Assembly (NCBI GenBank): GCA_028700115.1
Contig: JAQVTI010000001.1
Location: forward strand, 60,001-92,000
Reading direction: 5' to 3'
DNA: 32,000 nt
DNA from: Candidatus Iainarchaeum sp.
GTDB taxonomy: Archaea > Iainarchaeota > Iainarchaeia > Iainarchaeales > CSSED10-239
Shown: positions 75 to 17,701 of the stretch, in pieces
Layout of the letters: each line of letters opens with the position of its first letter
Position numbering within the stretch: the first letter of the stretch is position 1
The notes under the pieces: model-generated
What the model was told of the DNA's origin: nothing
Seen by the model: only the letters and a program-made list of their open reading frames with translations
Database searches by the model: none
Made by a program: the position numbers and the translations under genes

Positions 75-80
75 GTTTAT

Positions 81-716: not shown

Positions 717-727
717 AATAAAAAAAT

Positions 728-750
728 AAAAGAACTATTAAAGTTCTTTT
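728..750 (-). terminator. Weak hairpin (AAAAGAAC, 7-nt loop, GTTCTTTT) spanning the dfx stop, followed on the minus strand by a T-rich tract
   Basis: 8-bp inverted repeat at 728-735 / 743-750. The minus-strand transcript would continue with UUUUAUUUUUUUAUU. Only two G:C pairs, so the hairpin is weak. Confidence 0.25.
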
Positions 751-1121: not shown

Positions 1122-1143
1122 TTTTAAAACACCTCAAATATTT

Positions 1144-1993: not shown

Positions 1994-2024
1994 ATATATT
2001 ATATAAACAGAAATGTTTTTAAAT

Positions 2025-2041
2025 GTATTACATAGTAATAC
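2025..2041. promoter_or_regulatory. Perfect 17-bp palindrome GTATTACATAGTAATAC upstream of the PIN-like/UPF0175 operon; candidate operator
   Basis: 7-bp arms with a 3-nt centre, 32-48 nt upstream of the ATG at 1993. An A/T TATA-like stretch lies further upstream (about 2045-2060 on the minus strand). It could also be the rbr terminator hairpin. Confidence 0.3.
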
Positions 2042-2066
2042 AAATAAAAACAGATTTTAAAAAATC

Positions 2067-2651
2067 CTAATAATCTTCACATTGTTTTTCAAAATAATTA
2101 TAAGGATGATCACAAGATGGACATTTCTCAGGAGGCTTAGTTCCTTCTTCTAAATAACCACATTTTCTACAAATCCAATATACTTTATTTTCTTTTTCAA
2201 ACATTGTATTATTTTCAATTTCTTTTAAAAGTTTAGAAAATCTATCTTCATGATGTTTTTCTGCAACTGCAATTGATTTTAATCTATCTGCAATATCATC
2301 AAGTCCTTCTTCTCTTGCAATCTTAGAATAATCAGGATACATTGTAGTATTTTCAAAATTTTCTCCTTTAATTGCAGATTTAAGATTTTCTTTTGTATTT
2401 CCTAGAGTTGTAGGAACTTCAACTTCTAGTTTTAAATCTTCAAACTTCTGATTATTTTTTTCAAGTAAACTATTTAAAAGTCTAAAAAGCCATTTTGCAT
2501 GTTCAGTTTCTTGAGTTGCAGTTGCTTCAAAAACTTCAGTTATTTTTTCAAATCCTTCTTTTTTTGCAATCTTTGCATAAAATGTATATCTATTTCTTGC
2601 TTGGCATTCTCCAACATATGCATTTGCTAAATTTAAAATTGTTTTATTCAT
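2067..2651 (-). CDS. rbr: Rubrerythrin (diiron four-helix bundle plus C-terminal rubredoxin-like domain)
   Basis: ANAYVGECQARNRYTFYA, ATQETEHAKWLF and AVAEKHHEDRF are the ExxH diiron motifs. The C-terminal CRKCG...CPSCDHP is the rubredoxin-like part. The likely start is ATG 2651 (MNKTIL) with GAGGTG 6 nt upstream; the track start at 2660 is the GTG inside that SD. The gene ends at TAG. Confidence 0.9.
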   Translation of the reverse strand: MNKTILNLANAYVGECQARNRYTFYAKIAKKEGFEKITEVFEATATQETEHAKWLFRLLNSLLEKNNQKFEDLKLEVEVPTTLGNTKENLKSAIKGENFENTTMYPDYSKIAREEGLDDIADRLKSIAVAEKHHEDRFSKLLKEIENNTMFEKENKVYWICRKCGYLEEGTKPPEKCPSCDHPYNYFEKQCEDY

Positions 2652-2752
2652 AAAATACACCTCTTATTTTTAATATATTTAGATATATTAAAAACAAAAA
2701 GTATTAAATAGTATTTTATTAATATATAATATAGAAAAAAAGTGATAATTAT

Positions 2753-3586
2753 ATGGATATTTTAGAAAATATAGATTATTTAATAAATAACTCAAGAGAA
2801 GTATATAGATCAATTATAGTTCCATTATATCAATTAAAAAAAGAAGAACTTATTCTAACTTTAAAAAAACTAGAAACATCTCTTGAAAAGTTAGCACAAG
2901 ATACAATCTCAATTAATAGAAAAACATTAATACAATACTCAATTGAGATAAATACATCTAAAATGCAACTTTTCCATGAAGATTTTCTAATACTTGCAAA
3001 TAATATAAAAAAACAAATCTTTCTAGAAGAAAACAAAGCAGAAGTAAAAAATCAATTACTAAATATAAAAGAAGCAATTTCACATCCTCAAACATATTAT
3101 GATATTGAAGAAAAACTAAAAAATGAAATAAATATTTATATTGATTTTCTAGAAAGTGCAAAACTACAAATTAAAAATAAATACATAGACATAAGTAAAG
3201 AGAAAAAAACAAAAGAAGAACTTCTAAAAATAATAGAAGCTAAAAATCATGTAATAAAAGAACAACATAAAAAAATAAATGATTATTCATGGCTTGAGGC
3301 TAAAGAAAAGGCAAAAGATTCTAAAATCTCAGGTCTAGAAGAAGCTCTTTTAAAAAAAGTAAAAGTTACAGAAGAAAGACAAATTCTTCTAAAAATACAT
3401 GTTTCTAAAATAGAGTCTGAAATAAATGAAATTTATAGACATATAAAAAACCTAAATCACGATATTAAAAGTTTAGATAATTTTAATCTAGAAAAAGAAC
3501 AAATTTCTCTAGAGTTAATAAGAGAACTAAAAGATGAGCTTCTAGCAACTAGATATGCTCTATCTAAAAAACTAAATAAAGAATAA
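2753..3586 (+). CDS. Cytoplasmic coiled-coil protein, function unknown
   Basis: 277 aa with a Lys/Glu/Leu/Ile-rich heptad-like sequence throughout and no hydrophobic segment. Its stop is 2 nt before the start of the next gene. Confidence 0.7.
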   Translation: MDILENIDYLINNSREVYRSIIVPLYQLKKEELILTLKKLETSLEKLAQDTISINRKTLIQYSIEINTSKMQLFHEDFLILANNIKKQIFLEENKAEVKNQLLNIKEAISHPQTYYDIEEKLKNEINIYIDFLESAKLQIKNKYIDISKEKKTKEELLKIIEAKNHVIKEQHKKINDYSWLEAKEKAKDSKISGLEEALLKKVKVTEERQILLKIHVSKIESEINEIYRHIKNLNHDIKSLDNFNLEKEQISLELIRELKDELLATRYALSKKLNKE

Positions 3587-3588
3587 AT

Positions 3589-5097
3589 ATGAGTAACTAC
3601 GATCCATTCGGAGGAGATTTAAAAAGTAATTCTCCATTTAAATCTAATGAGTATAGTTATGGGTATGACACAAAGCCTAAGAAAAAAGGAAGTGGATTGA
3701 TAGTTTTATTAGTTATTTTATTAATAGGTGTATTTTTAGCAAAATACTTTTTATTTAACACAGCAGAAGTATCTTTTGATATAAAAGATATTGAAGGAGA
3801 TTCAATTGATGCAAAAATACTTCTTGCAAAAGATTCTTCTTTTAATAGAAATCTAGAAATTTTTTCTCCAGGTGTAAGTAAAGAGATCAAAAAAGGCACA
3901 TATTATCTTAAAGTTGAAAAAACAGGATATATTCCTCTAAAAATGGAAGATGTAGAAATAAAGGAAGATGGAGAAATTAAATTAGATCCTTTAGAAAAAA
4001 ACATATCTCTAACTATAACAAATCTTTCTTTTGAAGAAGAAATTTATGCAGGACAAAGATTAAATCTAATAATAAGTCTTGATAATAAATCTACTGAAGA
4101 ATTTAATGCAGATTGTTTTACTTTAGAAGGAGATTTTAAAGATTGGAATTATATATATGTAGATACTCAAGGTTTTGAAATAAATAAAGATAGTATTAAG
4201 ATAAATCCAAAAACTAAACAAAGTGTAATTTTACAAATGCAGGTTCCAACAGACATAGACCCAGATGAATATACAGGAAAGGTAAGAATTAAATATAGAG
4301 ATTCTTCAAAAGAAATTGAATATGAAGTTATTGAAGAACCTGAAATAACATATACTTTTAATTTAGAAGATTCTCTTGAGAGTGGTTCTTCAAAAACATA
4401 TAAACTTACAGTTGATAATAGGAAAAACAATGTAACAATTAGTGATTTAAAAATAGATTTTGATATAAATTCAGAAAATAATACAAATGTAAGAAATTAT
4501 TTTCCAAAAAGCGAAATTATAGAAATTGCTTCAAAAAAGAAAATAGAAAAAGCAATAAATGTGGAAATTCCAGTTAGTGCTGTTTCTGATAATTTAGAAG
4601 GAAATTTAGTTTTGTCTTCAAGTAGCTTTAGAGAAGATGTTTTACTTCCTTTATCTCTAGAGATAACTGAACCAGAAATTAACTTAGATCTAGACTTATC
4701 TAAAGAAAATGTTACATTAACAGTTGATCCTGATACTAACCTTTTAGAAAATACAACTTCTACTCTAACAATTACAAACAATAACAAAGTAGACTTAGAT
4801 ATTTCAAATATTTATTATGAAAATATATCTCTTCAGACAGACTGTCAAAACTTAGTTTATATTTCAGAAAATGTAATTCCTTCAAAGATATTAACAAACA
4901 CAAGTCATGATGTTTTAATTAACCTTGTGTATATGCAAGACCCAGAAGGAAATAACCCAACTGCTCCTGAGATAACAGATTTTTCATTCCTTAAGGGAAC
5001 AACTAGAAGTTGTCAAATAAATGTAAGGTTTAGACACCCTTATAGACCAGATGAAATAGTTGAACTTTCAAAGATAATAACAGTTAATGTGAATTAA
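3589..5097 (+). CDS. Single-pass surface protein: short cytoplasmic tail, TM helix, PEGA/carboxypeptidase-regulatory-like domain, then CARDB/Ig-like beta modules
   Basis: TM helix GLIVLLVILLIGVFLAKYFLF lies after a 36-aa tail. GTYYLKVEKTGYIPLKMEDVEI resembles the PEGA motif. This is followed by three roughly 100-aa Ser/Thr/Asn-rich beta-type segments with many N-x-S/T sequons. The domain calls are made by eye only. Confidence 0.6.
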   Translation: MSNYDPFGGDLKSNSPFKSNEYSYGYDTKPKKKGSGLIVLLVILLIGVFLAKYFLFNTAEVSFDIKDIEGDSIDAKILLAKDSSFNRNLEIFSPGVSKEIKKGTYYLKVEKTGYIPLKMEDVEIKEDGEIKLDPLEKNISLTITNLSFEEEIYAGQRLNLIISLDNKSTEEFNADCFTLEGDFKDWNYIYVDTQGFEINKDSIKINPKTKQSVILQMQVPTDIDPDEYTGKVRIKYRDSSKEIEYEVIEEPEITYTFNLEDSLESGSSKTYKLTVDNRKNNVTISDLKIDFDINSENNTNVRNYFPKSEIIEIASKKKIEKAINVEIPVSAVSDNLEGNLVLSSSSFREDVLLPLSLEITEPEINLDLDLSKENVTLTVDPDTNLLENTTSTLTITNNNKVDLDISNIYYENISLQTDCQNLVYISENVIPSKILTNTSHDVLINLVYMQDPEGNNPTAPEITDFSFLKGTTRSCQINVRFRHPYRPDEIVELSKIITVNVN

Positions 5098-5100
5098 ATT

Positions 5101-5745
5101 ATGAAAAAACAAGATAAATTTAAAATACAAGTAAATAAAGACCATTATTATAATAATTATGATGATATACTTAGATGGATATCATATTATTATCAAATAG
5201 ATAATATTTTAAAATTAAAACCTAAATCTGTTTTAGAAATAGGTGTTGGAAATAAAACCACATATAATTATTTAAAAGATAAAATAAATATTACAACTTG
5301 TGATTTTGATAAAAATCTAAAACCAGACATTGTAGGAGATATAAGAAATCTACCTATAAAAGATAAAACCTATGATGTAGTTTGTGCTTTTGAAGTTTTA
5401 GAACACATTCCTTTTTCAGATTTTAAAAAAGCAATAAAAGAATTAAAAAGAGTATCTAAAAAATATGTAATTATATCTATACCATATAGTTCAATTTATT
5501 TTAATAATGTATTTAAATTTCCTTTAATTAATAGAATATTTCACAAAAGATTTATAGAAATGACTATAAAAATACCATTATTTTTTAAAAAACATAAATT
5601 TAATGGAGAACATTACTGGGAAATTGGAAAAAAAGGATATCCTATTAAAAAAATAAGAAAAATAATAAAAACAGAATATAAAATAATAAAAGAAGAAAGT
5701 TCTTTATTAAATAAATATCACTATTATTTTATATTACAAAAATAA
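5101..5745 (+). CDS. Class I SAM-dependent methyltransferase
   Basis: Motif I VLEIGVGNKTT; post-I acidic residue at ...TCDFD; motif IV-like YDVVCAFEVLEHIP. Confidence 0.75.
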   Translation: MKKQDKFKIQVNKDHYYNNYDDILRWISYYYQIDNILKLKPKSVLEIGVGNKTTYNYLKDKINITTCDFDKNLKPDIVGDIRNLPIKDKTYDVVCAFEVLEHIPFSDFKKAIKELKRVSKKYVIISIPYSSIYFNNVFKFPLINRIFHKRFIEMTIKIPLFFKKHKFNGEHYWEIGKKGYPIKKIRKIIKTEYKIIKEESSLLNKYHYYFILQK

Positions 5746-5752
5746 AATATTT

Positions 5753-6654
5753 TTAATAATAGCCATATTTTTTTAATCCAAGTTTATATTTTTTATCTAA
5801 TTTTTTATTATCTTCTTTACACATCTCAAGTATCTTTTTACAAGTACCTGTTTTATCTCTATAAGGCAGATCAAATTTATTAATAAAATTATCCCATTTG
5901 TCAGAAATATTTAATTTTCTTAAAATGCCTCTAAAAGTTGCAAATTTCCAAGATTTTTTATCAAATAAATAAACAGGAACACCTTTATAAAATCCATTAG
6001 GATTATTTAAAGAATATTTAAAATTATTTAAAAATCTATTATATATAGTCCTAAATAAACCAAATTTAGAATTAATAATTTTTAATTCATATTTTGGGAC
6101 ACTACATTCACAAAATACACAAACCTCTTTAATAACATTATCTGGTTGCTCACAAAATTTTTCAAAAGGAACAATTAAAACATTTTTCTTTCCAAATAAT
6201 TTAACTATATAATCAATATAATTTAAATAATAAAAATTAAATAAATTAGGAATAAAAACTTTCTAGAATCACGCCTATTATTCAAATTATAAAAAGATTT
6301 TAAAGATAATGTACTTCCTGTTTTGATAGTTTGTAAATACATAGATTTTGCTAAACTATCTTGTTTTCTAATAAATAAAATTATTTTAGATTTTTTTTGA
6401 ATTAAATATAATTTATCCAATATATCTTTTCTATTTATAACTCTTTCTTCAATCCATCCAGAAAGATGTTCTGAAGAATATAAACCAGATTTTAATTTAA
6501 ATTTTTTAAAATATAAAACATCATCAAAAATTAATCTATTAAAATACTTAAAATCAGTAAAATCAACATAATTCAAATTTAACTTTGGAAAAATTTCTTT
6601 TTGAAAGAAAGTAGATCCTGTTTTATGTAAACCAATATGAAATATAATAATCAT
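5753..6654 (-). pseudogene. Sulfotransferase-family gene split by a -1/+2 frameshift (N-terminal ORF 6223..6654; C-terminal open frame 5753..6262)
   Basis: The N-terminal part has the PAPS-binding-loop-like motif FHIGLHKTGSTFFQ. Hand translation of 6262->5753 in another frame gives ...YYLNYIDYIVKLFGKKNVLIVPFEKFCEQPDNVIKEVCVFCE...KKYGYY*, with no ATG near its beginning. That sequence looks like the rest of the same enzyme. The frames overlap at 6226-6262, which contains two T5 runs. Confidence 0.6.
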
Positions 6655-6688
6655 AAAAAAATTATCTTAAAAACATTTAAAAAAGCTA

Positions 6689-7075
6689 TTATTGATTAAT
6701 TTTAGATTTAATATAAGTAGAAGATATACCTTTAGTTCTAGATAAATAAACTATCTCACAATAAGGTTTTAAAAAATTAAATTTATCTTTCCAATCATCA
6801 CCCATAAAAAAAACATCAACATTATATTTTTTAACATCTTTAATTTTTTGATTCCAAGTATTTTCTGGAATAACTTTATCAACATATTTAATAGAACTTA
6901 ATAATTCTTTTCTGATTTTATAATTATAAAAACTAGTTTTATTTTTTAACTTATTAAATTCATCCGTAGATAAAGCAACAATTAAAAAATCAACTTTAGA
7001 TTTTGCTCTTTTTAATAAACGTACATGTCCATAATGCAAAATATCAAAAGTACCATAAGTAATACCTATTTTCAT
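6689..7075 (-). CDS. tagD: Glycerol-3-phosphate cytidylyltransferase (CDP-glycerol synthesis)
   Basis: 128 aa. GTFDILHYGHVRLLKRAK (HxGH motif), ALSTDEFN, IKYVDKVIPENTWNQK, FFMGDDWKDKFNFL and RTKGISST closely follow TagD/TarD. Confidence 0.9.
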   Translation of the reverse strand: MKIGITYGTFDILHYGHVRLLKRAKSKVDFLIVALSTDEFNKLKNKTSFYNYKIRKELLSSIKYVDKVIPENTWNQKIKDVKKYNVDVFFMGDDWKDKFNFLKPYCEIVYLSRTKGISSTYIKSKINQ

Positions 7076-8253
7076 AAATAATTCTCCTTTATAAAATAAT
7101 ATAATCTTTTAGAAGCAAACCCATCTTTATATTTATGCCTTAAGTCTAACATTAATCTTATTTTACTAGAATCCATAGAATCATATTTATCAAAATTAAA
7201 TAACAACGATTTATAATTATTTATAATCTTTCCAGGCAGCCAAAAATCAATAGGATCTAAAAATAACCCTCTATTATACTTAAATTTATTTAAATCAGAA
7301 TTTAAAATAAAAATAGGTTTATTTAATAATAAATAATCAATAGCTACAGAAGAATAATCAGTAATTAAAACATCAGAAGCACCCATAAAACTATATAAAT
7401 TAAAATTTAAAAAATTCAAATCAGAATTTAATATAAATAAAATATTTGACAATGAATCAAATTTATCTAATTTTTTTAGTCTTAAATCGTAAGGATGCAA
7501 TTTAACTAATAATAAAAAATTATTTTTTTTAAGATATAAATTAAATTTTTTCAAATTAAAATCTTTAAATAAAAATAAATTACTTAAATAATTCATATTA
7601 ACATTAGAATTAGAATATATTGAAAAATTATCTCTAAAAGTAGGCAAATAAAAATAAATCTTTTTATAATTTGAATTTTTACATTTATATAACAACAATT
7701 TAGTTAAATTTTTTTTTTGGAAATTAGAATTAAATAACACATCATTTCTAGCTAAGCCAAATAATAAAATTTTATTAGGATCTATATTATAAGCAGAAGA
7801 AAATTCTAATTTATCTATTTGAGAACAAAATATAAAATAACAATTTTTATTAACCCCATATTTAAATGCAGTATTTTGATTTAAAAAACGGCCCATATTT
7901 TTTAAAGCACAACCATGCCATAAATGAAAAACAACTCTTCGTTTTGATCTAAACCCTGTAAAACCACCATGACTTACAAAAATAAATTTTGAAAATAATA
8001 TTTTAAAAAAACCTTTTAAAGAATACAAATTATAAGATTTCACATTATATTTATTAAATAAATAATTTGATTCTTTATTATCATGACTAATCCAAATCAA
8101 ATTAAAGTTTTTTTTAGATTTCATAAATTTATAAAATGCATCAACATTAGAAAAATCACCATTATTTGATACAAAAATAAAATTATTTTTATATTTAGGA
8201 GTAATATAATCTAATAAACTTACTAACCTAAAAAACAAACTTTTAAAAATCAT
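7072..8253 (-). CDS. CDP-glycerol glycerophosphotransferase family protein (TagB/TagF-like)
   Basis: Family motifs HLWHGCALKNMG, YLPTFRD, VKLHPY and DVLITDYSSVAIDYLLLNKPI are present. It overlaps tagD by 4 nt. Confidence 0.85.
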   Translation of the reverse strand: MIFKSLFFRLVSLLDYITPKYKNNFIFVSNNGDFSNVDAFYKFMKSKKNFNLIWISHDNKESNYLFNKYNVKSYNLYSLKGFFKILFSKFIFVSHGGFTGFRSKRRVVFHLWHGCALKNMGRFLNQNTAFKYGVNKNCYFIFCSQIDKLEFSSAYNIDPNKILLFGLARNDVLFNSNFQKKNLTKLLLYKCKNSNYKKIYFYLPTFRDNFSIYSNSNVNMNYLSNLFLFKDFNLKKFNLYLKKNNFLLLVKLHPYDLRLKKLDKFDSLSNILFILNSDLNFLNFNLYSFMGASDVLITDYSSVAIDYLLLNKPIFILNSDLNKFKYNRGLFLDPIDFWLPGKIINNYKSLLFNFDKYDSMDSSKIRLMLDLRHKYKDGFASKRLYYFIKENYL

Positions 8254-8257
8254 AAAA

Positions 8258-9160
8258 TCAAATCTTTATTTTCTTTAATAATTTTAAAAATAAACCAAAT
8301 AAATTTAATTTATAATATTTTTTAGAAATAAAATTATCTACAAAAATATTTCTTAAAAATACATCGGGATGTATATAAATATTTAATATTCTATTATCTT
8401 GTTTTACACTATTAATAGTGTGAGTAGAATCAACCCCAAAACCAATATTTTTAACTAAATCATATTTAGGTTGAATAGATAAGCCATTATTTACCCAAAT
8501 ATTATATTGCCATATATAAGCCCAAGTATTAATTTTATTATTTTTTACAAGATTAAATATATATCTCCAATATAATCTATCTAATAATCTATTATTAATT
8601 AATTTAAAAAATTTATTTTTCTTAAATTCATTATAATTAGACATATTAATATCATATTTGTTCCAAGCTCTTCTCCAAGAAGCCCAACCCCAAATATGCG
8701 CATATTTTGAAAAAAAATAATCTGAATCAATATATTTTTTTCTAATTTTATCATTAATAAAGGTATTTCCTGAAAGAATCATTATTCTATCATCATCTTT
8801 ATATCTAACTAAAAGTTCTTTACAATATTTAAAAAAACTATTATTAGGTAAACAATCATCTTCTAAAATAATACCCATTTCTTCATTTTTAAAAAACCAA
8901 GTAATTGCAGAAGAAACTGCAAGTTTACAACCTAAGTTTTTTTTTCTATATAAAGTTTTAACTTTACAATCCCAATCTATTTTTGAAACAATTTTTTTAA
9001 CTTCATCATTTTTTTTAAGATCATCCAAATTATTTTCTCTAGGACCATCTGCAGCAATATAAAGTTTTTTAGGTTTCATACTTCTAATTTTTGCAAAAAC
9101 TTTCTTAGTTGTATCAGGTCTATTGAAAATTAAAAATAATATAGGAATATCATAACTCAT
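8258..9160 (-). CDS. GT-A fold glycosyltransferase of the HlpA-like (hemolytic protein HlpA-like) family
   Basis: ILFLIFNRPDTTKKVFAKIRSMKPKKLYIAADGPR, DWDCKV, NLGCKLAVSSAITWFF, ILEDDCLP and DDDRIMILSG match this family. The likely start is ATG 9160 (MSYDIP); the track start at 9169 is a GTG. Confidence 0.75.
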   Translation of the reverse strand: MSYDIPILFLIFNRPDTTKKVFAKIRSMKPKKLYIAADGPRENNLDDLKKNDEVKKIVSKIDWDCKVKTLYRKKNLGCKLAVSSAITWFFKNEEMGIILEDDCLPNNSFFKYCKELLVRYKDDDRIMILSGNTFINDKIRKKYIDSDYFFSKYAHIWGWASWRRAWNKYDINMSNYNEFKKNKFFKLINNRLLDRLYWRYIFNLVKNNKINTWAYIWQYNIWVNNGLSIQPKYDLVKNIGFGVDSTHTINSVKQDNRILNIYIHPDVFLRNIFVDNFISKKYYKLNLFGLFLKLLKKIKI

Positions 9161-9165
9161 AAAAA

Positions 9166-9660
9166 TCACTTAATAACTTTTGCTTTAACTCTTAATTCAA
9201 CAATAATATTTCCAAAAACTCTTTTTAAAGCATTCAAAATTACTTTTGGCAACCATTTAATAAATCTTTGAGGTACAGAAATTAATTCAATAATTTCAAA
9301 TTTTTCTTTTTGAATTATATGATTATAATTTACAAAACCCAAAGTTTGTAACATAGATTTTTCATTAAAAAAATTAACATGTGTAGGATCGGCATACGCA
9401 TAATATGAATTATAATAAGGCACAATTATTTCTACAACACCTTTATTTTTCGAAATTCTCCAAATTTCTTGCATTACTTTTTGAGGATTATTTAAATGTT
9501 CTAAAACATTATCAATTAAAACATAACTAAAAGTATCATCTTTAAATGGATAAGGATATTTTGAAAAATCAAAAGAATTATCTATATTTTTAGCTTTCTG
9601 AAAATCTACATTGACCCATCCTTTTTTAATATCTTTTCCACAACCAAAATTCAATTTCAC
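9166..9660 (-). CDS. Class I SAM-dependent methyltransferase (Methyltransf_11-like)
   Basis: MKLNFGCGKDIKKGWVNVD glycine-rich start, FSYVLIDNVLEHLNNPQKVMQEIWRISKNKGVVEIIVP. Confidence 0.7.
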   Translation of the reverse strand: MKLNFGCGKDIKKGWVNVDFQKAKNIDNSFDFSKYPYPFKDDTFSYVLIDNVLEHLNNPQKVMQEIWRISKNKGVVEIIVPYYNSYYAYADPTHVNFFNEKSMLQTLGFVNYNHIIQKEKFEIIELISVPQRFIKWLPKVILNALKRVFGNIIVELRVKAKVIK

Positions 9661-9666
9661 TAAAAA

Positions 9667-10779
9667 TCACTTACTTTCAAAAATATCAATTAATTTTTCT
9701 TCAGAATAATCTATTAAATAATTATTTAAGAAATATTTTCTAATATATTTAGATTTATTCTTATTCAACTGATTTAATTTAATATAATTAACAAAATCTT
9801 TATAATAACATTTATTAGATATATATCCAAGTTTATTTACAACTATATCTTTTATTGCACCATTATTATAACTTAAAACCGAACACCCACACATATATGC
9901 TTCTAAAATAACTAAAGGAAAACATTCTTTTTCATATTTAGTAGGAAATATTAAATAATTGGATTTTAATAAATAATCATACTTTTTAGATCCATAAATA
10001 GGACCTAAATAATTACAATTTTTTAATTTTAATTTATTTTTTGTAAAATTCCATTTTTCTTTAAATTCATCTGAACTCCAAGCCCCAATAAAATCACAAG
10101 TATATTTTATTTTATTTTTTTCAAGTTCTTTTAAAAAATATAAAACATCTAAAGGACCCTTAGATTTAATCATATTTGATAAATATACAAATTTAATTTG
10201 TTTAGAATCAAATTTATATTTTAAAAATTTATTAAATTTAAATTCACTTATTTCATCTTTAATTCCATTTGGAAGATAAAAAACTTGTTTTTTACTAATA
10301 ACCTTACTAAAACTAGAATATAATAAAGGAGATAATAAAATTACTTTTGTTTTTTTAAATACTTTTTTATAATATTTCTCTAAAGATTTATGTTCAGATA
10401 AATAAAAATTTAATCCTTTGGCATGAAAATGTATAAAAATATCTTTTCTAAATAATTTAGCTAACCAAACATAAATAGAGTCTCTTAAAAAAGCACTTCC
10501 AAAAGGAGCCATTTCCAAATATACTTTATTTGGTCTAAATATAACTAATTTATATAATAATTTAAAAAAAACTCTAAAAACATTAAAAATAGATTTAAAA
10601 TTAAATTTACCTATATCTTTTATATTTGAATAATTATTTAATTTAATATAATTAATATTATATTTTTTATTTATTAATTTACTATTTAAGTAAATATCAT
10701 TCATCTTTGCAGCTCCATGAACAGGAGGTGCAAGTCTTACTAAATATAATATTTTTTTCTTTTTTACCAAATATATCAC
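9667..10779 (-). CDS. Glycosyltransferase family 4 (GT-B fold)
   Basis: N-terminal KILYLVRLAPPVHGAAK and C-terminal FPTKYEKECFPLVILEAYMCGCSVLS (E-x7-E-like region). There is no ATG near the conserved N-terminus. The GTG at 10779 forms a GTGA overlap with the upstream stop. Confidence 0.75.
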   Translation of the reverse strand: MIYLVKKKKILYLVRLAPPVHGAAKMNDIYLNSKLINKKYNINYIKLNNYSNIKDIGKFNFKSIFNVFRVFFKLLYKLVIFRPNKVYLEMAPFGSAFLRDSIYVWLAKLFRKDIFIHFHAKGLNFYLSEHKSLEKYYKKVFKKTKVILLSPLLYSSFSKVISKKQVFYLPNGIKDEISEFKFNKFLKYKFDSKQIKFVYLSNMIKSKGPLDVLYFLKELEKNKIKYTCDFIGAWSSDEFKEKWNFTKNKLKLKNCNYLGPIYGSKKYDYLLKSNYLIFPTKYEKECFPLVILEAYMCGCSVLSYNNGAIKDIVVNKLGYISNKCYYKDFVNYIKLNQLNKNKSKYIRKYFLNNYLIDYSEEKLIDIFESK

Positions 10780-11495
10780 TTAAAATCTTTTAATTTTAAA
10801 GAAAATATAAAAATAAATCCTTTAATACTATTTATTACTTTTTTAAAAGAATGTTTAAAATCAGTAACTAATCTATAAAACCACTCAAAACCAATCTTTT
10901 GTATAAATTTAGGTGCATGTTTCTTTTTATTTGAAATAAAATCAAAACCAGCACCTACATTAAATATGAATTTAACTTTAACAATATTAAATAAATCATT
11001 TGCTAAGATTTCTTGTTTAGGATTACCAATACCAATCCAAAGGTAGTCACATTTTGAAGCATTTATCTTTTTAGACATTTTTGATATTTCATTTTTATTA
11101 AATTTAATTGTATCTTTAATAAATGGAGGATTATAATAAGATATATTTTTTATAAGTATATTAAATTTCTTAGAAATTAAAGAAACTTCTTTTTCACCTA
11201 AATTACCTAGTAAAAAATGCTTTTTCTTTTTAAAATAATTATCAGATAAAATTTGTTCAAAAAAATAAGGACCTTGTATTCTTTTAACTTTTTTAAAATT
11301 AATAATAGATAAATAAGCAGATATTGGAAATCCATCTATAAAATTAAAATTATTTTTATTATTTATAGAATTATAAAATAATTTATTTGTATTATATAAA
11401 TATAAACTATACATATTTAAAAAATTAAAAATTACTTTTTTATCTTTTTTAATATATTTTTTTAAATAATTTATATTTGATCTATAAAACAACAT
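10776..11495 (-). CDS. WecB/TagA/CpsF family glycosyltransferase (GT26)
   Basis: FNFLNMYSL, IDGFPI, KRIQGPYFF, WIGIGNPKQE, NVGAGFDF, HAPKFIQKIGFEWFYRL follow the GT26 consensus order. Confidence 0.8.
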   Translation of the reverse strand: MLFYRSNINYLKKYIKKDKKVIFNFLNMYSLYLYNTNKLFYNSINNKNNFNFIDGFPISAYLSIINFKKVKRIQGPYFFEQILSDNYFKKKKHFLLGNLGEKEVSLISKKFNILIKNISYYNPPFIKDTIKFNKNEISKMSKKINASKCDYLWIGIGNPKQEILANDLFNIVKVKFIFNVGAGFDFISNKKKHAPKFIQKIGFEWFYRLVTDFKHSFKKVINSIKGFIFIFSLKLKDFK

Positions 11496-11499
11496 ATAA

Positions 11500-12984
11500 T
11501 CATTTTTTTCTAAATTTATTTATAATTGGATTTATTAAAAATAAAATTTCTTTTATTCTAATATACTTGAAAAGGAAAATACATATAAAGTATATTAATC
11601 CTCCAATAACAGCATATCCTAAAACATTAAGTGAATTTTGTAAAAAAATTATATTAAGAATATCTTTTATTAAAAATATACCTAAAAGCATAATAATTCC
11701 AGAAACAAAAGGAACTATTAAATTTCTAAAGAAATTTGTTTGTTTTAAAATATCTTTTCTAAATTTATAATAAACACCTATAAAAATAATAACTTCTGAA
11801 ATAATTGTTGTAATTCCTGCACCTATAATCCCAAATAAAGGAATTGCAATAAAATTTAATAAAACATTTACAATTGATGCAATTAAAACCATCTTAAATT
11901 GGTATCTTTGATAATCATAAACATTTAATGAATTATTAAATATTTGATTAATTGCATTAAATAAGAAAAACAACATAATTAATTTAAATGCAATATTTCC
12001 TAAAACAAAATCTTTTCCAAAAACTAATAAAATTATTTCTTTTGATAAAAATATAGATCCAAAACATAAAGGTACTGCTAAAGTTAAAACTACTTTTGTA
12101 AATTTATTAAAAATATCTTTAAATTGCTTTTTTGATTTTGTAGCAATTGAAAGTTGTGGAAAAAAAGTTGTGGAAAAAATTGCAATTACTCCAATCATAA
12201 ATCCATAAAATGAATAACCTATAGAATAAAGTCCTACTTGATAATCATTTATAAAAAGAGAAATCATAAATCTATCAAAATTAAAATAAATTAAACCAAA
12301 AAGTCCAGAAAGTGCAAATGGCCAAAATATCTTAGATTTTTCTTTAATAAAATTAACATCTAATTTTGGTTTAAATTTAATTCTATTTTTAAAAAACTTC
12401 ACAAAATTATATAATATAAATATTAATCCTAATATAGAACCTAAAACATAAGATAAAGAAACTCCTAATACACCTTTATTTAAATAAATAACAAATAATA
12501 ATCCTATAACTATGCCTAATTTCAAAATAATTTCTCTTATTGATTCGTATTTCATCTTCTCAAAAGCATTTAAAAAATTTCCAAAATAACCAGAAAATGA
12601 TTGAATCATATTAAAAAAAATAAAAACTATAATTAATGCTTTTACAATGAAAGGTTTATTTAAAAATAAAGAAACTAAATAAACTATTATTCCAAATAAA
12701 AATATACAAATTAGTTTTAAATAGAAAAAATTATTAAAATATAAATTTAATAACTTTTTATTTTTAGAAACATCTCTAAAAATAAGAACTCCTAAACCTA
12801 TATTTGCAATTATAGAAAATATTCCAACAAAAGAAAGTGCAAAATTTAACTGACCATATCCAGTTACACCTAAATATCTAGGAATTAATGTAATTGTTAC
12901 AATAGATAATAAATATACAAATATTTTTGAAAAAGTAAGCCAACCTATGTTTTTGGCAATAGTTTTCTTATCTTCTATTTCCAT
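11500..12984 (-). CDS. Wzx-type oligosaccharide flippase (MOP superfamily, polysaccharide biosynthesis protein)
   Basis: 494 aa and hydrophobic throughout (about 12-14 helices). The N-terminus KNIGWLTFSKIFVYLLSIVTITLIPRYLGVTGYGQ is typical of Wzx/RfbX proteins. Confidence 0.75.
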   Translation of the reverse strand: MEIEDKKTIAKNIGWLTFSKIFVYLLSIVTITLIPRYLGVTGYGQLNFALSFVGIFSIIANIGLGVLIFRDVSKNKKLLNLYFNNFFYLKLICIFLFGIIVYLVSLFLNKPFIVKALIIVFIFFNMIQSFSGYFGNFLNAFEKMKYESIREIILKLGIVIGLLFVIYLNKGVLGVSLSYVLGSILGLIFILYNFVKFFKNRIKFKPKLDVNFIKEKSKIFWPFALSGLFGLIYFNFDRFMISLFINDYQVGLYSIGYSFYGFMIGVIAIFSTTFFPQLSIATKSKKQFKDIFNKFTKVVLTLAVPLCFGSIFLSKEIILLVFGKDFVLGNIAFKLIMLFFLFNAINQIFNNSLNVYDYQRYQFKMVLIASIVNVLLNFIAIPLFGIIGAGITTIISEVIIFIGVYYKFRKDILKQTNFFRNLIVPFVSGIIMLLGIFLIKDILNIIFLQNSLNVLGYAVIGGLIYFICIFLFKYIRIKEILFLINPIINKFRKK

Positions 12985-13028
12985 AATAATAAATTAGATA
13001 TATAAATATATTTAAACTATATTATTTT

Positions 13029-14471
13029 ATGAATTACAAAAATATACTTTCATTTATTGAGAAAAATAAACTTACAATAATTCTAATTATTATAGGTATT
13101 CTCTCTATTATATATGCATTAATACAATATATGCCATACTGGGATGAAGGAGTATACACTAGTAATGGAAAATATATATTCTCAAACACAGAAAAGTTAA
13201 CATATGAATACCAAAGACCACCTGTTATGAGTCTAATAATAGGTTTTTTCTGGAAAATTAGTTTAAATGAATTTATATTTTCTAAACTTACTTTAATTAT
13301 TATATTTTTACTAGGACTTTTTGCTTTATATAAAATAGCAGAAGATATAAAAAAAGGCTCAGGAGTAATTACAACTTTACTTTTTGCATCATGTGCTACA
13401 ATTTCCTTTTACACAAATAGATTGCTTACAAGTATTCCTGGAACTTCTCTTGCAATCATAGGATATTATCTATATACTAAAAAGAAATATTATCAATCTG
13501 GTTTGTTATTTGCCCTAGGTTTCTTATTTAGATATACTTCTCCTTTAATGTTTATTGTAATTGGTATATTTTTAGTAATTGAATTAATTAAATATCATAA
13601 AAGAAAAAATATTTTTAATATTTTAAAATATGGTTTAGGTTTTGCAACTTTAGTTTTTCCTTTTATGTTAATCAATGCATTTACTTTAGATTTAAATCAT
13701 TCTTTTATTAAAAAAATGATAGTGCCTTTTTTAGATGCATCTAACATGGTTGCTGCAAATTCTTTTGATTTAGTAAACTCTGGATTAGTATACTATATAA
13801 AGTTCTTATTTACTCAAAATCTATTTATTGTATTTTTTATAATTTTTATAGTATTTTTATTTATAAAAAAAGAATTTAGAACAAATAAAATAATTATACC
13901 ATTTATTACTTCTTTAGTTTATTTATTATATCTTTCAAGCATAGTACACTATGAACCTAGATATTTTATTGTAGCTCTTCCTTATTTTGCAATAATTTCA
14001 GGATTTGTAATAACTTATTTTTTAAAAAATATAAAAATAAGAAGAATTTTAGAAATTGTTTTAATAGTTTTAACAGTTATTGTTTTTATTGGATGCATGC
14101 AAGTCCAGATAAATATAAACTACGGAACTGAGTTTGAAAAAATTGAAAACTATTATTCATATGTTATAAACAATGATTCTGACTATAATGGAATTATAGG
14201 AATTGATAATCCTGTTTTTGGAGTATATAATAGTAATAATAATGTATTCTATCTTGCAGGTCCAGAATATGCAGAAAATAGACTAAATAAATACAGACCT
14301 GTTAAATATTTATTGTTTGAAGAAAGAAGCTTTGAATGTTGGAAAGAAAATGATACAGTTTGTGAAAAACAAGTAGAAAGCTTTAATAGTTTAATAGAAA
14401 AAGAATATGATTTAGTTTATACATCAAATTTCCAAGGAACAGATCATTTCATATACAAACTAAAAGAATAA
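13029..14471 (+). CDS. GT-C fold integral membrane glycosyltransferase (ArnT/PMT family-39-like)
   Basis: 480 aa and polytopic. The acidic motif YWDEGVY lies right after the first helix, like the loop-1 DE motif of PMT/ArnT enzymes. The C-terminal region of about 110 aa is soluble. Confidence 0.55.
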   Translation: MNYKNILSFIEKNKLTIILIIIGILSIIYALIQYMPYWDEGVYTSNGKYIFSNTEKLTYEYQRPPVMSLIIGFFWKISLNEFIFSKLTLIIIFLLGLFALYKIAEDIKKGSGVITTLLFASCATISFYTNRLLTSIPGTSLAIIGYYLYTKKKYYQSGLLFALGFLFRYTSPLMFIVIGIFLVIELIKYHKRKNIFNILKYGLGFATLVFPFMLINAFTLDLNHSFIKKMIVPFLDASNMVAANSFDLVNSGLVYYIKFLFTQNLFIVFFIIFIVFLFIKKEFRTNKIIIPFITSLVYLLYLSSIVHYEPRYFIVALPYFAIISGFVITYFLKNIKIRRILEIVLIVLTVIVFIGCMQVQININYGTEFEKIENYYSYVINNDSDYNGIIGIDNPVFGVYNSNNNVFYLAGPEYAENRLNKYRPVKYLLFEERSFECWKENDTVCEKQVESFNSLIEKEYDLVYTSNFQGTDHFIYKLKE

Positions 14472-14474
14472 GAT

Positions 14475-15218
14475 TTATTTTTTATAAATCTTATATTTCT
14501 TAATACCCCATTTTGTTAAAAGGTATTTAATTAATTCACCAAATATAGAAAATCCATATTGAAATGATGATTTTAGATCAATTGAAGATGCATCATCAAA
14601 ATATCTTGTCTCAACTGGAATTTCTCTTATTCTAAATCTTTTTGAAATTACTTGAATTATAATTTGTGTATCAAAAACAAAATTATTTGAGTTTTTTTCA
14701 TATGGAATAGATTCAAGTAATTCTTTTGACCAAGATCTATATCCTGTATGAAATTCACTTAAGTTACTTCTTAAAACTAGATTTTCTATAAAAGTTAAAA
14801 TTCTATTTCCTATATATTTATACTTAGGCATTCCACCTTTTATAGGATCTCTTGCATATAAAAATCTAGATGCAAAAACTGCACTTGCAGTTCCGTTTGC
14901 AATTGGAGAAATCATATCTTCTAAAATTCTAGGATCATACTGATAATCTGGATGAACCATAACTACAATATCAGCACCTCTTTTTAGGGCTTCTTTATAA
15001 CAAGTCTTTTGATTCCCACCATAACCTGTGTTTTTTTTATGAATTATAGTTGTAAGTTTAAGTTTTCTTGCAAGTTTAGCGGTTCCATCTTTAGAACAGT
15101 CATCAACTAATATCATTTCATCTACAAACTTTTTAGGAATATCTTTTACTGTTTGTTCAAGTGTTTTTTCTGCATTGTATGCTGGAAAAACTACTGCAAC
15201 TTTTTTACCTTTATACAT
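14475..15218 (-). CDS. GT2 polyprenyl/dolichyl-phosphate hexosyltransferase (GtrB/DPM1/ArnC-like)
   Basis: VAVVFPAYNAEKTLEQTV, ILVDDCSKDGT, VVMVHPDYQYDP and FHTGYRSW. 247 aa with no C-terminal TM helices. Confidence 0.8.
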   Translation of the reverse strand: MYKGKKVAVVFPAYNAEKTLEQTVKDIPKKFVDEMILVDDCSKDGTAKLARKLKLTTIIHKKNTGYGGNQKTCYKEALKRGADIVVMVHPDYQYDPRILEDMISPIANGTASAVFASRFLYARDPIKGGMPKYKYIGNRILTFIENLVLRSNLSEFHTGYRSWSKELLESIPYEKNSNNFVFDTQIIIQVISKRFRIREIPVETRYFDDASSIDLKSSFQYGFSIFGELIKYLLTKWGIKKYKIYKK

Positions 15219-15301
15219 ATTACATCATTTTTTAAAAACATTTATTAATTAGTAAATATAATATTTATTAGTAAACAAATATAAAACAAACGGAAAGAAA
15301 A

Positions 15302-15742
15302 ATGAAACAAAACATATTAGATAAAATATTTGATATTTTAGAAAAGCATTTCAAATTTTTTAAACATTTTAGAAAAATTGGAAAATATTTATTTTTTTCT
15401 GTAATTGCAACTCTAGTTGATATTGTTTGTTTGTATATATTTACTGAGTTTCTAAATGTATTCTATTTAGTTTCAGCAAGTTTATCTTATTGTGTAGGTA
15501 TGGTTATTGCCTTTTTTGGAAATAAGAAATATACTTTTGAAAATAAAACTGATAAGAAAAACATAACTAAATTTATTGAGTTTACTATAATTTCTTTAAT
15601 TGGTTTAGTACTAAATATTATTTTAATTAAAATATTTACAGAAAATCTAGGTTTATGGTATATCTTATCAAAAATAATTACAGTTGTAATTATATTCTTT
15701 GCAAAATATATTGCACATAAAAAAATAGTTTTTAGAAATTAA
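15302..15742 (+). CDS. GtrA-family small membrane protein
   Basis: 146 aa with four hydrophobic helices. YLFFSVIATLVDIVCLYIFTE... and the C-terminal FFAKYIAHKKIVF are typical of the GtrA family. Confidence 0.75.
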   Translation: MKQNILDKIFDILEKHFKFFKHFRKIGKYLFFSVIATLVDIVCLYIFTEFLNVFYLVSASLSYCVGMVIAFFGNKKYTFENKTDKKNITKFIEFTIISLIGLVLNIILIKIFTENLGLWYILSKIITVVIIFFAKYIAHKKIVFRN

Positions 15743-15743
15743 A

Positions 15744-15887
15744 TTATTTTAAATTAAAAACGACTCCTAAAAATCCAATTACCCCAAATAAAGCAGCAAC
15801 CCATCCATATAAATAAAATGGATTTGCTAATATATAAATTGCTATAAATAAAAAAACTATACTAATTAATAAACTTTTAATATCCAC
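15744..15887 (-). CDS. Putative 47-aa two-helix membrane peptide (not in the ORF track)
   Basis: Hand translation gives (GTG)MDIKSLLISIVFLFIAIYILANPFYLYGWVAALFGVIGFLGVVFNLK*. The GTG starts 1 nt after the upstream TAG, and GGGAG lies 8 nt upstream. No homology is recognised. Confidence 0.3.
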   Translation of the reverse strand: MDIKSLLISIVFLFIAIYILANPFYLYGWVAALFGVIGFLGVVFNLK

Positions 15888-15888
15888 A

Positions 15889-16452
15889 CTAATCACTCCC
15901 ACTTAAATATTTTTTATTAATATAATCTTCAAAATCATTAATTCCCATTATATCAATATCTCTAAATGGAAGATTATAATTAGAATAATATTTTTTATAA
16001 ATATCTTCACAAGTAAAAAAATCAGCTAAATTATCAGTAAATATAATATTTACAAATTTATTAGAATCTTTTTCATTTTGTTCTAAAAAATAAATTATCA
16101 TATCATCAAAATCAAATCCTTCTCTTTCTAATTCATACTATTCTAAAATTATATTTTTTTGAAGAGCATTTAATTTTGAAAATTCTAAGAAATCATCTGA
16201 AAAATAACACTTAAATTCTTTTTCATCAAAATACAAATTATACTTATTTATTATAAATTTAATTTCATTAAAAATTTTATCATTAACTTTAAATAATAAT
16301 TTATCGAAACCAGATATAGTTGAAAAAATATTTTTTATTTTTTCCATTTTTATAAATTCATTATTTAAAGGAGTCATTCCTGAATCAGACTGATAATTAA
16401 AAATCCATATATTAGTATCTACTAAAACAATATCTTTTCTATCTACAGTCAT
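15889..16452 (-). pseudogene. PIN-domain nuclease gene interrupted by a single in-frame TAG (ORFs 16138..16452 and 15889..16101 share one frame)
   Basis: The N-terminal ORF has IVLVDTNIWIF, which is PIN strand 1 with the first acidic residue. After the TAG at 16138-16140 the frame stays open (YELEREGFDFDD) into the second ORF. That ORF carries NIIFTDNLADFF, resembling the distal PIN acidic motif. Confidence 0.5.
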
Positions 16453-16671
16453 AATTAACTCCGAACTTATAATTAAAATATATTTAATAAATATAATTAT
16501 GTATAGTAAACTTTAAAAGTATATCTTATAGTATATAAAGTTAAGGATATATTTCAAATAATAATAACTTATATATATAACTTTCTATTTAAAAAAAATA
16601 AATACAAACATTTATAAACAATATAATACATAATTATTATACTAAATTATAATAAAAAAATTTGATTTTTT

Positions 16672-17637
16672 ATGGCAATTAAAAAAGATATTTTAAATTA
16701 TATAATAAATAACCCTAGTCTAACTTCTAAACAAATTATTCAAAATAACAAATATACAGAAATAACTATTAAAAAAATTATATTTGAACTTCTAGAAGAA
16801 AAACAAATAAAGTTAGAAAATGGAAAATATTATTCTATAAACTATATAGACAATAAAAAACAAATTATAGATAAAGATACATTTTTTGGAATATATGTAA
16901 AACAAGAACATAAAGATATAATTAAATATTTATTTAGAGAAATTAGAAATAATTGGATAAAATATAATAATAAAGAACCAGACAATACACAAATATATAA
17001 AATACTTGTAGAAATAAATAATATTTCAGAAAAAATAGATTTACCTATTGTATGGTATAAATTTGGACAAATACCAGTTATTAGTTATAATATAAACGAT
17101 TTAGAAAATATAAAAGAAATAAATGGAATAAATTCAAAAGATATAATAAAAAGTATATTTAAAAATTTAAAAAGAACTTCAAAAGAAATTAAACTTAAAC
17201 AATACACTTCAGGATCTACAAACATGCACACAATTTATTCTTTTAAAGAAAGAATTATTGAAAGATTCTTTAGAAATGATTTTAAATTCATAAAAGATAA
17301 CTTCAAAATATTTTTTAAAAAATTACCATACATGAAAGATCCAAATAAAACTCTAAATAGATTTTATGAATTTATCTGTATGTACAACAAACTAGATAAA
17401 AATAAACAAATAAATCCTAAATATAAAGATTTATTTAATAAATTATTTACATCTTTTTGGAACATAGTTGCAATTTATAATTTCAAACATGATATAAAAA
17501 ATTATTATATAAAAAATAACATAGATATAAATATAGATAATAATTTTAAATTTAAATTACAAATGGAAGTTGAAGAATTTAATAATTTACTATCTTTATT
17601 TGAAACAGAATATTTATCTACAGAAAATAGTTTTTAA
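16672..17637 (+). CDS. Hypothetical protein with an N-terminal winged-helix DNA-binding-like domain
   Basis: The first ~55 aa (KKDILNYIINNPSLTSKQIIQNNKYTEITIKKIIFELLEEKQIKLENGKYYSI) fit a wHTH pattern (H1-H2-H3-wing). The rest is unrecognised. Confidence 0.5.
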   Translation: MAIKKDILNYIINNPSLTSKQIIQNNKYTEITIKKIIFELLEEKQIKLENGKYYSINYIDNKKQIIDKDTFFGIYVKQEHKDIIKYLFREIRNNWIKYNNKEPDNTQIYKILVEINNISEKIDLPIVWYKFGQIPVISYNINDLENIKEINGINSKDIIKSIFKNLKRTSKEIKLKQYTSGSTNMHTIYSFKERIIERFFRNDFKFIKDNFKIFFKKLPYMKDPNKTLNRFYEFICMYNKLDKNKQINPKYKDLFNKLFTSFWNIVAIYNFKHDIKNYYIKNNIDINIDNNFKFKLQMEVEEFNNLLSLFETEYLSTENSF

Positions 17638-17701
17638 AAAAATTTATAAACATATATATCTTCTTATAATATAATTACAAAAATATATTTTTAGATAAAT
17701 T

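Follow-up and report, generated by a model that had tools for sequence, protein, structure and literature searches.

A surface-glycan operon with a bacterial-type CDP-glycerol module in the genome of an Iainarchaeum archaeon

Peptidoglycan is not expected in archaeal envelopes, and the N-glycosylation of Haloferax volcanii involves the Agl proteins AglJ, AglD, AglR, AglS and AglB. We know of no Agl pathway that uses cytidine diphosphate (CDP)-glycerol or a family 26 glycosyltransferase (GT26), and glycerol-phosphate decoration of glycans has been shown, to our knowledge and in the literature searched, only in bacteria and recently in mammals. The slg surface-layer (S-layer) cluster of Paenibacillus alvei carries tagD, a CDP-glycerol:glycerophosphotransferase domain (WsfC), N-acetylmannosamine (ManNAc) transferases and a lipid-phosphate-glucose/GT-C branching pair, WsfH/WsfD (PMC2943079). 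The genome of Methanobrevibacter ruminantium M1, published in 2010, holds homologues of teichoic-acid genes, and an unidentified glycopolymer was proposed for its phosphate-rich walls (PMC2812497). Apart from that genome note, our literature search on archaeal TagD and on teichoic acids of DPANN archaea returned only bacterial work. Here we describe an operon of Candidatus Iainarchaeum sp., a DPANN archaeon of the phylum Iainarchaeota, that encodes a TagD and a TagB/TagF-like enzyme, located on the minus strand between 12984 and 5753 of a 32,000-nucleotide (nt) stretch (assembly GCA_028700115.1, contig JAQVTI010000001.1, positions 60,001 to 92,000), referred to below as the window. This is an archaeal surface-glycan operon with a horizontally acquired CDP-glycerol module, for which there are clear precedents in other archaeal genomes as well as an existing GenBank annotation.

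Seven intact minus-strand open reading frames (ORFs) were found between 12984 and 6689, and three-frame translation recovered the eighth gene, a sulfotransferase, as a split ORF. An earlier note, made from the sequence alone, had described eight tightly packed genes; the positions and overlaps are as it claimed for seven of them, and the eighth is broken. Adjacent genes overlap by 4 nt at three junctions (10776-10779, 9166-9169 and 7072-7075), and the remaining intergenic gaps measure 4-6 nt, with 34 nt ahead of the last gene. The GC content across the window is 17-30%, which is extremely AT-rich. A scan for sigma-70 promoters and terminators gave no enrichment compared with shuffled sequences, using a model that is not applicable to archaea. 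Profile searches with Pfam and NCBIfam, including the Glyphos_transf, cytidylyltransferase and WecB/TagA/CpsF families, bore out the enzyme identities proposed for the operon, which are as follows (aa, amino acids; SAM, S-adenosylmethionine).

11500 to 12984, minus strand: Wzx/MOP-family flippase, 494 aa, the first gene of the operon (Pfam Polysacc_synt 145 bits, also Polysacc_synt_3 and MurJ).
10776 to 11495, minus strand: GT26 glycosyltransferase of the WecG/TagA/CpsF family, 239 aa (PF03808, Glyco_tran_WecG, 103.7 bits).
9667 to 10779, minus strand: GT4 (GT-B) glycosyltransferase, 370 aa (Glycos_transf_1 64 bits).
9166 to 9660, minus strand: small class I SAM methyltransferase, 164 aa (Methyltransf_11 33.4 bits, Methyltransf_23 28.8 bits).
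8258 to 9169, minus strand: predicted GnT-I-like GT-A glycosyltransferase, 303 aa (predicted structure and Foldseek, without a Pfam model).
7072 to 8253, minus strand: CDP-glycerol glycerophosphotransferase family enzyme (TagB/TagF-like), 393 aa (PF04464 179.7 bits).
6689 to 7075, minus strand: TagD, glycerol-phosphate cytidylyltransferase, 128 aa (TIGR01518 170.5 bits, cutoff 165.4).
5753 to 6654, minus strand: sulfotransferase gene with a frameshift near 6259 (three-frame translation; Sulfotransfer_1 after repair).

The NCBIfam Wzx/MOP models matched the flippase weakly, under their cutoffs. In the small methyltransferase, motif I (LNFGCG) lies at the extreme N-terminus.

The TagD protein passed the glycerol-3-phosphate cytidylyltransferase equivalog TIGR01518, the HxGH and RTxGISxT signatures were also present, and its motifs are almost the same as those of the TagD/TarD enzymes of known structure. 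Its residues 1-126 aligned with the S. aureus enzyme (2b7l, 171 bits) and with B. subtilis TagD (1coz, 167 bits), including HYGH and RTKGISST. The TagF-like protein covered positions 6-365 of the 367 in PF04464 (cutoff 22.1 bits), a full-length family match, and consists of the TagB/TagF-like catalytic domain only, aligning with residues 356-708 of S. epidermidis TagF. Both catalytic histidines of TagF are kept: H113 (in LWHG) corresponds to H444 and H253 (in KLHP) to H584, which is substituted in the 3l7m sequence variant, and ITDYSS pairs with ITDYSS. Across an alignment of 34 TagF-like homologues, W112-H113-G114, H253 and D299-Y-S-S302 were invariant; we assume a nucleotide-binding role for the DYSS motif in TagF. 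The motifs quoted earlier for the two proteins (LWHG, LPTFRD, KLHP and ITDYSS in the transferase; HYGH, STDEFN and MGDDW in TagD) were all found. With their catalytic residues kept, TagD and the TagF-like protein look like active enzymes. The tagD start overlaps the upstream TagF-like gene by 4 nt, which implies coupled expression, and this overlap is the one feature that points to CDP-glycerol as the presumed donor of the TagF-like enzyme.

A protein identical to the TagF-like protein is present in a GenBank metagenome-assembled genome (MAG), where it is already annotated as "CDP-glycerol glycerophosphotransferase family protein". One other relative was 43% identical and the rest 26-37%, spread over many phyla, with the named ones at 30-37%. 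The 43% homologue (contig L003, 1283-3708, 20% GC) adjoins a fusion of IspD and a short-chain dehydrogenase that resembles CDP-ribitol synthase. Close relatives of the TagF-like enzyme may take a different CDP-alditol as donor.

The use of sn-glycerol-3-phosphate (G3P) by TagD had been set against the sn-glycerol-1-phosphate (G1P) of archaeal lipids. This conflict is softened and is no barrier, since cytidylyltransferases that use both enantiomers have been published: Cps3B and Cps7B, both of the TagD family, and Aquifex AQ1368 do so, the TagF-like polymerase Cps7D also takes CDP-1-glycerol, and Archaeoglobus lysates contain a G1P-preferring cytidylyltransferase activity (PMC8262930).

The remaining glycosyltransferases were assigned at family or fold level. 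The GT26 protein scored 80.2 bits against the superfamily model TIGR00696 (cutoff 69) and 66.6 bits against the TarA equivalog (cutoff 350), and the TagA structure 7mpk matched it at E 6.4e-10. The 303-aa protein at 8258-9169 gave no match in Pfam or PDB sequence searches. The family is very large, counting 11,338 representatives of clusters at E<=1e-3. The AlphaFold2 model of the protein, made from a 50-sequence alignment, had a pLDDT of 92.3 and a pTM of 0.90, and the top Foldseek matches of the model were GnT-I (1fo8, E 6.7e-10), POMGnT1 and GnT-II. Residues E103-D104-D105 were invariant in the alignment and stand, as we take it, at the position of the EDD metal-binding motif of GnT-I. By its predicted structure the protein is a GnT-I-like GT-A glycosyltransferase. 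The "HlpA-like GT-A" of the earlier note was thus right as to the fold, with GnT-I as the nearest structure.

The two ends of the operon have different relatives. The best 120 matches of TagD were 63-70% identical, and the named ones among them, the MAG's own protein aside, were all bacterial (Bacteroidales, Bacillus/Priestia, Exiguobacterium, Clostridium and Lactobacillus). Many relatives of the GT26 protein were found at 44-55% identity, the named ones from Nanoarchaeota and Pacearchaeota. The GT4 protein was 48% identical to a GT4 encoded two genes past a GT26 relative in locus L089, and the GT-A protein was 40% identical to an ORF product in a Pacearchaeota glycan cluster, L091; both of these clusters are without a TagD or TagF-like gene. 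The DPANN relatives of GT26, GT4 and GT-A mean that only the TagD/TagF end looks imported, and for this reason we rejected the idea that the operon as a whole came recently from bacteria. From these affinities we read the operon as a glycan core of DPANN type to which a bacterial-type CDP-glycerol module and a sulfotransferase are joined distally. The description as a hybrid therefore stands in the sense that DPANN glycosyltransferases occur alongside a TagD of bacterial affinity, and the "hybrid teichoic" framing was overstated.

A rough neighbour-joining tree of Glyphos_transf proteins, calculated without support values, placed the archaeal sequences in at least 7 separate positions among bacterial ones, which fits their acquisition by repeated transfers. 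No single bacterial donor of the TagF-like gene was resolved in this tree, the named relatives being 30-37% identical. GTDB species genomes were scanned with a 7-sequence alignment as query, and of the best 80 Glyphos_transf loci, 11 were archaeal: five from Methanobrevibacter, two from Methanobacteriota, two from Promethearchaeota, one from Halocatena and one from an uncultured archaeon. Among the archaeal loci found, only a Woesearchaeota MAG contig (L006) had TagD within 8 kb of Glyphos_transf. In its region 211-7744 a TagD-like gene (56% identity) and a pair of Glyphos_transf genes are accompanied by a CMP-sugar synthetase-like gene, NeuB and methyltransferases. The L006 Glyphos_transf paired in the rough tree with a sequence from a Patescibacteria MAG. 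This pairing hints at exchange between ultrasmall archaea and bacteria.

Wzx, TagD and Glyphos_transf form a recurring glycan-locus layout. Locus L005 has the order GT4-Glyphos-TagD-GT2-GT4-Gtf3-Wzy-Glf-Wzx, and an Enterobacter locus (L013) has TagD, Glyphos and Wzx together. In L008, Wzx and Wza occur with two Glyphos_transf genes and a three-gene set which we take to resemble the CDP-2-glycerol pathway. The Wzx flippase in the place of the TagGH exporter had been regarded as the mark of an unusual hybrid, a view that the same combination in these three loci does not bear out. Nor can glycerol-phosphate transferases be treated as a Gram-positive trait, given the 11 archaeal loci and the teichoic-acid homologues of M. 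ruminantium (PMC2812497).

Relatives of the GT26 protein were found in two further contexts of interest. On a DPANN-like contig, L090 (cluster at 4746-18270), a 49%-identical GT26 directly follows a Glycos_transf_4 phosphotransferase (AglH-like GPT), STT3/AglB and a methyltransferase; after the GT26 come a GT4, a UDP-N-acetylglucosamine 2-epimerase, five sugar-modification genes and then a distant Glyphos_transf. L090 is a candidate for a compact N-glycosylation cluster with teichoic-type parts. On L094 the distance between a GT26 relative and a gene for an S-layer protein is 7 kb. Downstream of the L094 glycan cluster, 15537-20729 holds about 15 very short same-strand ORFs without Pfam matches, and this run could be a virus or mobile element that has integrated.

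Four genes next to the operon have predicted functions in glycan synthesis.

5101 to 5745, plus strand: convergent SAM methyltransferase, 214 aa (Methyltransf_11 42 bits; weak best NCBIfam match MftM, an oligosaccharide methyltransferase).
13029 to 14471, plus strand: GT-C-type membrane glycosyltransferase, 480 aa (PMT_2 31.8 bits, Glyco_transf_22 30.6 bits).
14475 to 15218, minus strand: GT2 resembling polyprenyl/dolichyl-phosphate-hexose synthases, 247 aa (Glycos_transf_2 72 bits).
15302 to 15742, plus strand: small membrane protein of the GtrA/DPMS-TM family, 146 aa (PF04138 86.9 bits).

The convergent methyltransferase probably belongs to the glycan locus. The GT-C gene is divergent from wzx across a spacer of 44 nt, and together with the GT2 and GtrA genes it forms a Gtr/AglD-AglS-like set for outer-face glycosylation (13029-15742), probably in the same glycan locus as the wzx operon. 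Such a trio is the usual equipment for attaching a sugar there from a lipid-phosphate-sugar. The NCBIfam matches of the GT2 protein were all sub-cutoff (AglJ 87 bits with a cutoff of 325, PpgS 61, haloarchaeal dolichyl-phosphate hexose transferase 53.5), and by its family it is also a possible candidate for an initiating or branching enzyme next to the operon. Two features of agl clusters are thus present, a Wzx/AglR-like flippase and a dolichyl-phosphate-hexose synthase-like GT2, the latter at family level only.

The surrounding genes had been called archaeal, and profile matches confirmed this. They include Sec61-gamma/SecE (TIGR00327 57.7 bits, cutoff 36.2), Sec61-beta (PF03911, about 20144-20308), a type II methionine aminopeptidase (MetAP2, 246 bits, cutoff 223), Spt5 with its NGN and KOW domains, L11, FtsZ and a FlaI-like ATPase. 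Unassigned ORFs surround the FlaI-like ATPase (22693-24654), an 803-aa DUF2341 protein (17702-20113) and Sec61-beta in the region 16672-26058, which is probably a type IV pilus/archaellum-like surface-filament locus beside the glycan genes. At 81-2660, genes for a desulfoferrodoxin-type superoxide reductase, rubrerythrin and 8-oxoguanine glycosylase lie beside a UPF0175 antitoxin-like ORF; these oxidative-stress genes are consistent with an anaerobe.

Window ORFs of at least 100 aa, plus SecE, were scanned with Pfam and NCBIfam models for functions missing from the operon. No match was found among them to a TagO/WecA-type transferase (PF00953, PF02397), to TagGH or any other ATP-binding cassette (ABC) transporter, to Wzy (Wzy_C), Wzz or Poly_export/Wza, or to the LCP ligase model. 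The claim that the window lacks a TagO-type initiator and a TagGH exporter was in this way upheld for the larger ORFs.

The reading that we favour, at about even confidence, is that the locus makes a dolichol-linked oligosaccharide decorated with glycerol phosphate, which is flipped by Wzx and most likely ends on surface proteins (S-layer, pilins). For the carrier, the order of the steps, the number of glycerol phosphates, the final acceptor and the stereochemistry of the glycerol, we infer the following. At the cytoplasmic face, the GT26, GT4 and GnT-I-like GT-A, together with an initiator whose gene is not in the operon, would build an oligosaccharide on dolichyl (pyro)phosphate; the precedent in the GT26 family is a beta-ManNAc-type transfer onto an N-acetylhexosamine (HexNAc)-PP-lipid. 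TagD would convert CTP and glycerol phosphate to CDP-glycerol, and the TagB/F-like enzyme would transfer glycerol phosphate from it to a sugar hydroxyl, probably as one or a few residues and not as a long polymer. One or two methyltransferases would add methyl groups, and the finished unit would be flipped by Wzx. At the outer face, GT2, GtrA and GT-C could add a further hexose from dolichyl-phosphate-hexose, and the glycan would then most likely pass to surface proteins through an AglB encoded elsewhere. Few glycerol-phosphate units are favoured because of the Wzx route, the single-domain enzyme and its better match to TarF than to TarB. The protein-glycan reading is preferred because of the GT26 relative beside AglB in L090, the one near an S-layer gene in L094, and the absence of Wzy, chain-length regulator, ABC exporter and ligase matches among the scanned ORFs. 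The glycerol-phosphate-bearing, methylated glycan on a polyprenyl or dolichyl carrier that was proposed earlier stays the best reading.

A more specific version of this, rather unlikely in our estimate, is a DPANN N-glycan core that copies the teichoic linkage unit (HexNAc-ManNAc-glycerol phosphate) by means of dolichol, an AglH-like enzyme, GT26, the acquired TagD/TagB-like pair, Wzx and AglB, the glycerol phosphate being perhaps sn-1. If it were true, no archaeal glycan with glycerol phosphate would precede it, and nature would be seen to use CDP-sn-1-glycerol for a glycoconjugate.

Several results weigh against the favoured reading of a glycerol-phosphate-decorated protein glycan. The best NCBIfam match of the TagF-like protein, the TarF equivalog NF041712, reached 70.9 bits with a cutoff of 550, and the TarB equivalog NF041711 reached 34.5 bits with a cutoff of 500; scores this far from the cutoffs do not fix single versus repeated transfer. 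With its 43% homologue beside a CDP-ribitol-synthase-like fusion, the donor specificity of the enzyme is not readable from homology and rests on the adjacency of tagD. Neither an initiating phosphotransferase nor a source of glycerol phosphate lies within the window, and the AglB/STT3 oligosaccharyltransferase gave no match among the scanned ORFs of these 32 kb. Of the five loci in which the GT26 or a relative was viewed in context (the window, L089, L090, L091 and L094), only one showed STT3 adjacency. The frameshifted sulfotransferase adjoins tagD, so the end of the operon may be decaying. In the literature searched, no chemically demonstrated archaeal glycerol-phosphate glycan was found.

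The lack of AglB in the window, and of STT3 in four of the five GT26 contexts, would also be expected if the same chemistry led to an exopolysaccharide, a capsule-like layer or a free glycolipid, with the genes for its polymerisation or anchoring lying elsewhere. L005 and L008, whose TagD/Glyphos/Wzx layouts match best, have the look of polysaccharide loci, the former with Wzy and the latter with Wza. However, the scanned ORFs of the window yielded no homologue of Wzy, Wzz, Wza or a ligase, and the L090 relative of the GT26 is directly beside AglB and the AglH-like enzyme. We regard a non-protein product as possible, though on balance unlikely.

A true teichoic-acid-like polymer, with the TagF-like enzyme as the polymerase that extends a HexNAc-ManNAc linkage unit by poly(glycerol phosphate), is improbable. 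Wzx flippases handle short units, and TarF is not known to add more than one or a few. The TagF-like enzyme has no domain besides the catalytic one, it scored higher against TarF than TarB (70.9 versus 34.5 bits), the GT26 fell short of the TarA equivalog, TagGH is absent from the window, and neither an LCP ligase nor TagO/WecA was matched among the scanned ORFs. These points stand against the co-occurrence of a TagA-family GT26, TagD and a TagF-like protein, the agreement of its catalytic histidines with those of the polymerase TagF, and the precedent of M. ruminantium, with its phosphate-rich walls and teichoic-acid homologues (PMC2812497).

The sulfotransferase gene bears on whether the distal end of the operon still functions. 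Its N-terminal ORF (6654 to 6223) encodes 143 aa and begins with a loop (HKTGST) like that which binds 3'-phosphoadenosine 5'-phosphosulfate, and the remainder lies in another frame up to a stop at 5753. As sequenced, the gene gave no PF00685 match; insertion of one base near 6259, in an AGAAAG/T5 stretch, restored a 300-aa product that matched Sulfotransfer_1 at 27.3 bits (cutoff 22). The alignment crosses the junction, and the repaired product also aligns with the sulfotransferase 3rnl straight across it. The truncated 143-aa ORF was also found in NCBI and Logan contigs. These are probably from the same reads as the window, so the frameshift may mark a pseudogene or be a sequencing error common to them. 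Probably no working sulfotransferase is made, and the sulfated product envisaged earlier is doubtful.

NCBI MAG and Logan assembly contigs tile positions 1-22984 of the window at 99.9-100% identity.

1 to 5409: Logan contig L092.
4944 to 8452: NCBI contig L001.
5795 to 8902: Logan contig L002.
8877 to 22984: Logan contig L093.

Two other assemblies break at 5409-5795 and at 8877-8902, on either side of the sulfotransferase-TagD-TagF segment. Between the NCBI contig and the window there are 2 differing sites, with one amino-acid change in TagD as the result. This suggests strain-level variation at the cassette. Together with the frameshift, the breaks and the differing sites are what would be seen if the cassette were a decaying import, strain-variable and being lost, and today's glycan were made without glycerol phosphate. 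We consider this slightly more improbable still than a teichoic-type polymer: TagD and the TagF-like gene are intact and translationally coupled, all examined catalytic residues are kept, and the host-like GC content at third codon positions (GC3) argues for long residence under selection.

Per-gene GC3 and the contig tiling were used in place of the tetranucleotide comparison, which was uninformative (operon versus flanks r 0.93-0.98, equally high with unrelated AT-rich loci). GC3 was 0.07 for TagD and 0.11 for the TagF-like gene, compared with 0.05-0.08 for L11, Spt5, FtsZ and MetAP2. L001 joins TagF/TagD to the methyltransferase and the end of a 502-aa ORF, which L092 in turn ties to Pus10, the first gene of that contig. 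The sole thin join is the 26-nt overlap at 8877-8902, which falls inside the GT-A ORF, intact, homologous to its family over its full length and predicted to fold well. A chimeric contig, or a TagD/TagF segment from a co-occurring bacterium, to which the ~70% identity of TagD to bacterial proteins, the fragmentation of other assemblies and the non-discriminating tetranucleotide comparison might point, is essentially excluded by the host-like GC3, the archaeal flanks, the tiling contigs and the GT-A ORF across the right-hand break. By GC3 and tiling, no sign was found of the chimera that the earlier note wished to exclude.

If the module is active, the surface glycan of this archaeon would carry an anionic glycerol-phosphate group, and the operon would be a further indication that genes taken from bacteria serve DPANN archaea in remodelling the surface by which they contact their hosts. 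As a small and tractable enzyme pair, TagD and the TagF-like enzyme lend themselves to the question of which enantiomer of glycerol phosphate goes into CDP-glycerol in an archaeon. Their practical value is limited, as the organism has not been grown in culture, GenBank annotates the genes in this sense already, and similar genes are scattered over many archaeal lineages.

Compared with the wall teichoic acid systems of B. subtilis and S. aureus, the operon shares a TagD orthologue, a TagB/F catalytic domain with both histidines, a TagA-family GT26 and the presumed CDP-glycerol donor. It differs in having no TagO, TagGH or LCP ligase, in export by Wzx, in TarA, TarB and TarF scores far below cutoff, and in an archaeal host whose carrier is presumably dolichol. 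The bacterial Wzx-dependent capsule and O-antigen loci, represented by L005 and L008, have GT4s, Glyphos_transf, TagD, Wzx and a layout for adding glycerol phosphate before the flip in common with it, whereas the window operon is without Wzy and export or chain-length proteins, has archaeal neighbours and uses core glycosyltransferases of DPANN clades. The Agl system of H. volcanii is resembled in the AglR-like Wzx, the AglJ/AglD-like GT2, the GT-C that is perhaps AglS-like, and the DPANN relative with GT26 beside AglB; in contrast, AglB is not in the window and all matches are under the equivalog cutoffs. M. ruminantium and the other archaea have Glyphos_transf proteins of other neighbour-joining subclades, and M. 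ruminantium has pseudomurein.

The TagF-like capsule polymerases Cps3D and Cps7D of Gram-negative pathogens (PMC5974469, PMC8262930) share the catalytic fold (Cps3D, 8qoy, E 1.1e-8) and are likewise accompanied by a dedicated TagD-family cytidylyltransferase. They are multi-domain proteins of >1000 aa with a fused glycosyltransferase and export through an ABC transporter, whereas the window enzyme has a single domain and 393 aa. The closest worked-out counterpart of the operon's logic is the slg cluster of P. alvei. It is bacterial, its glycan is O-linked and ABC-exported, and the substituent is glyceric acid phosphate, but its WsfH/WsfD pair mirrors the GT2/GtrA/GT-C genes at 13029-15742 and its product decorates a surface-layer protein (PMC2943079).

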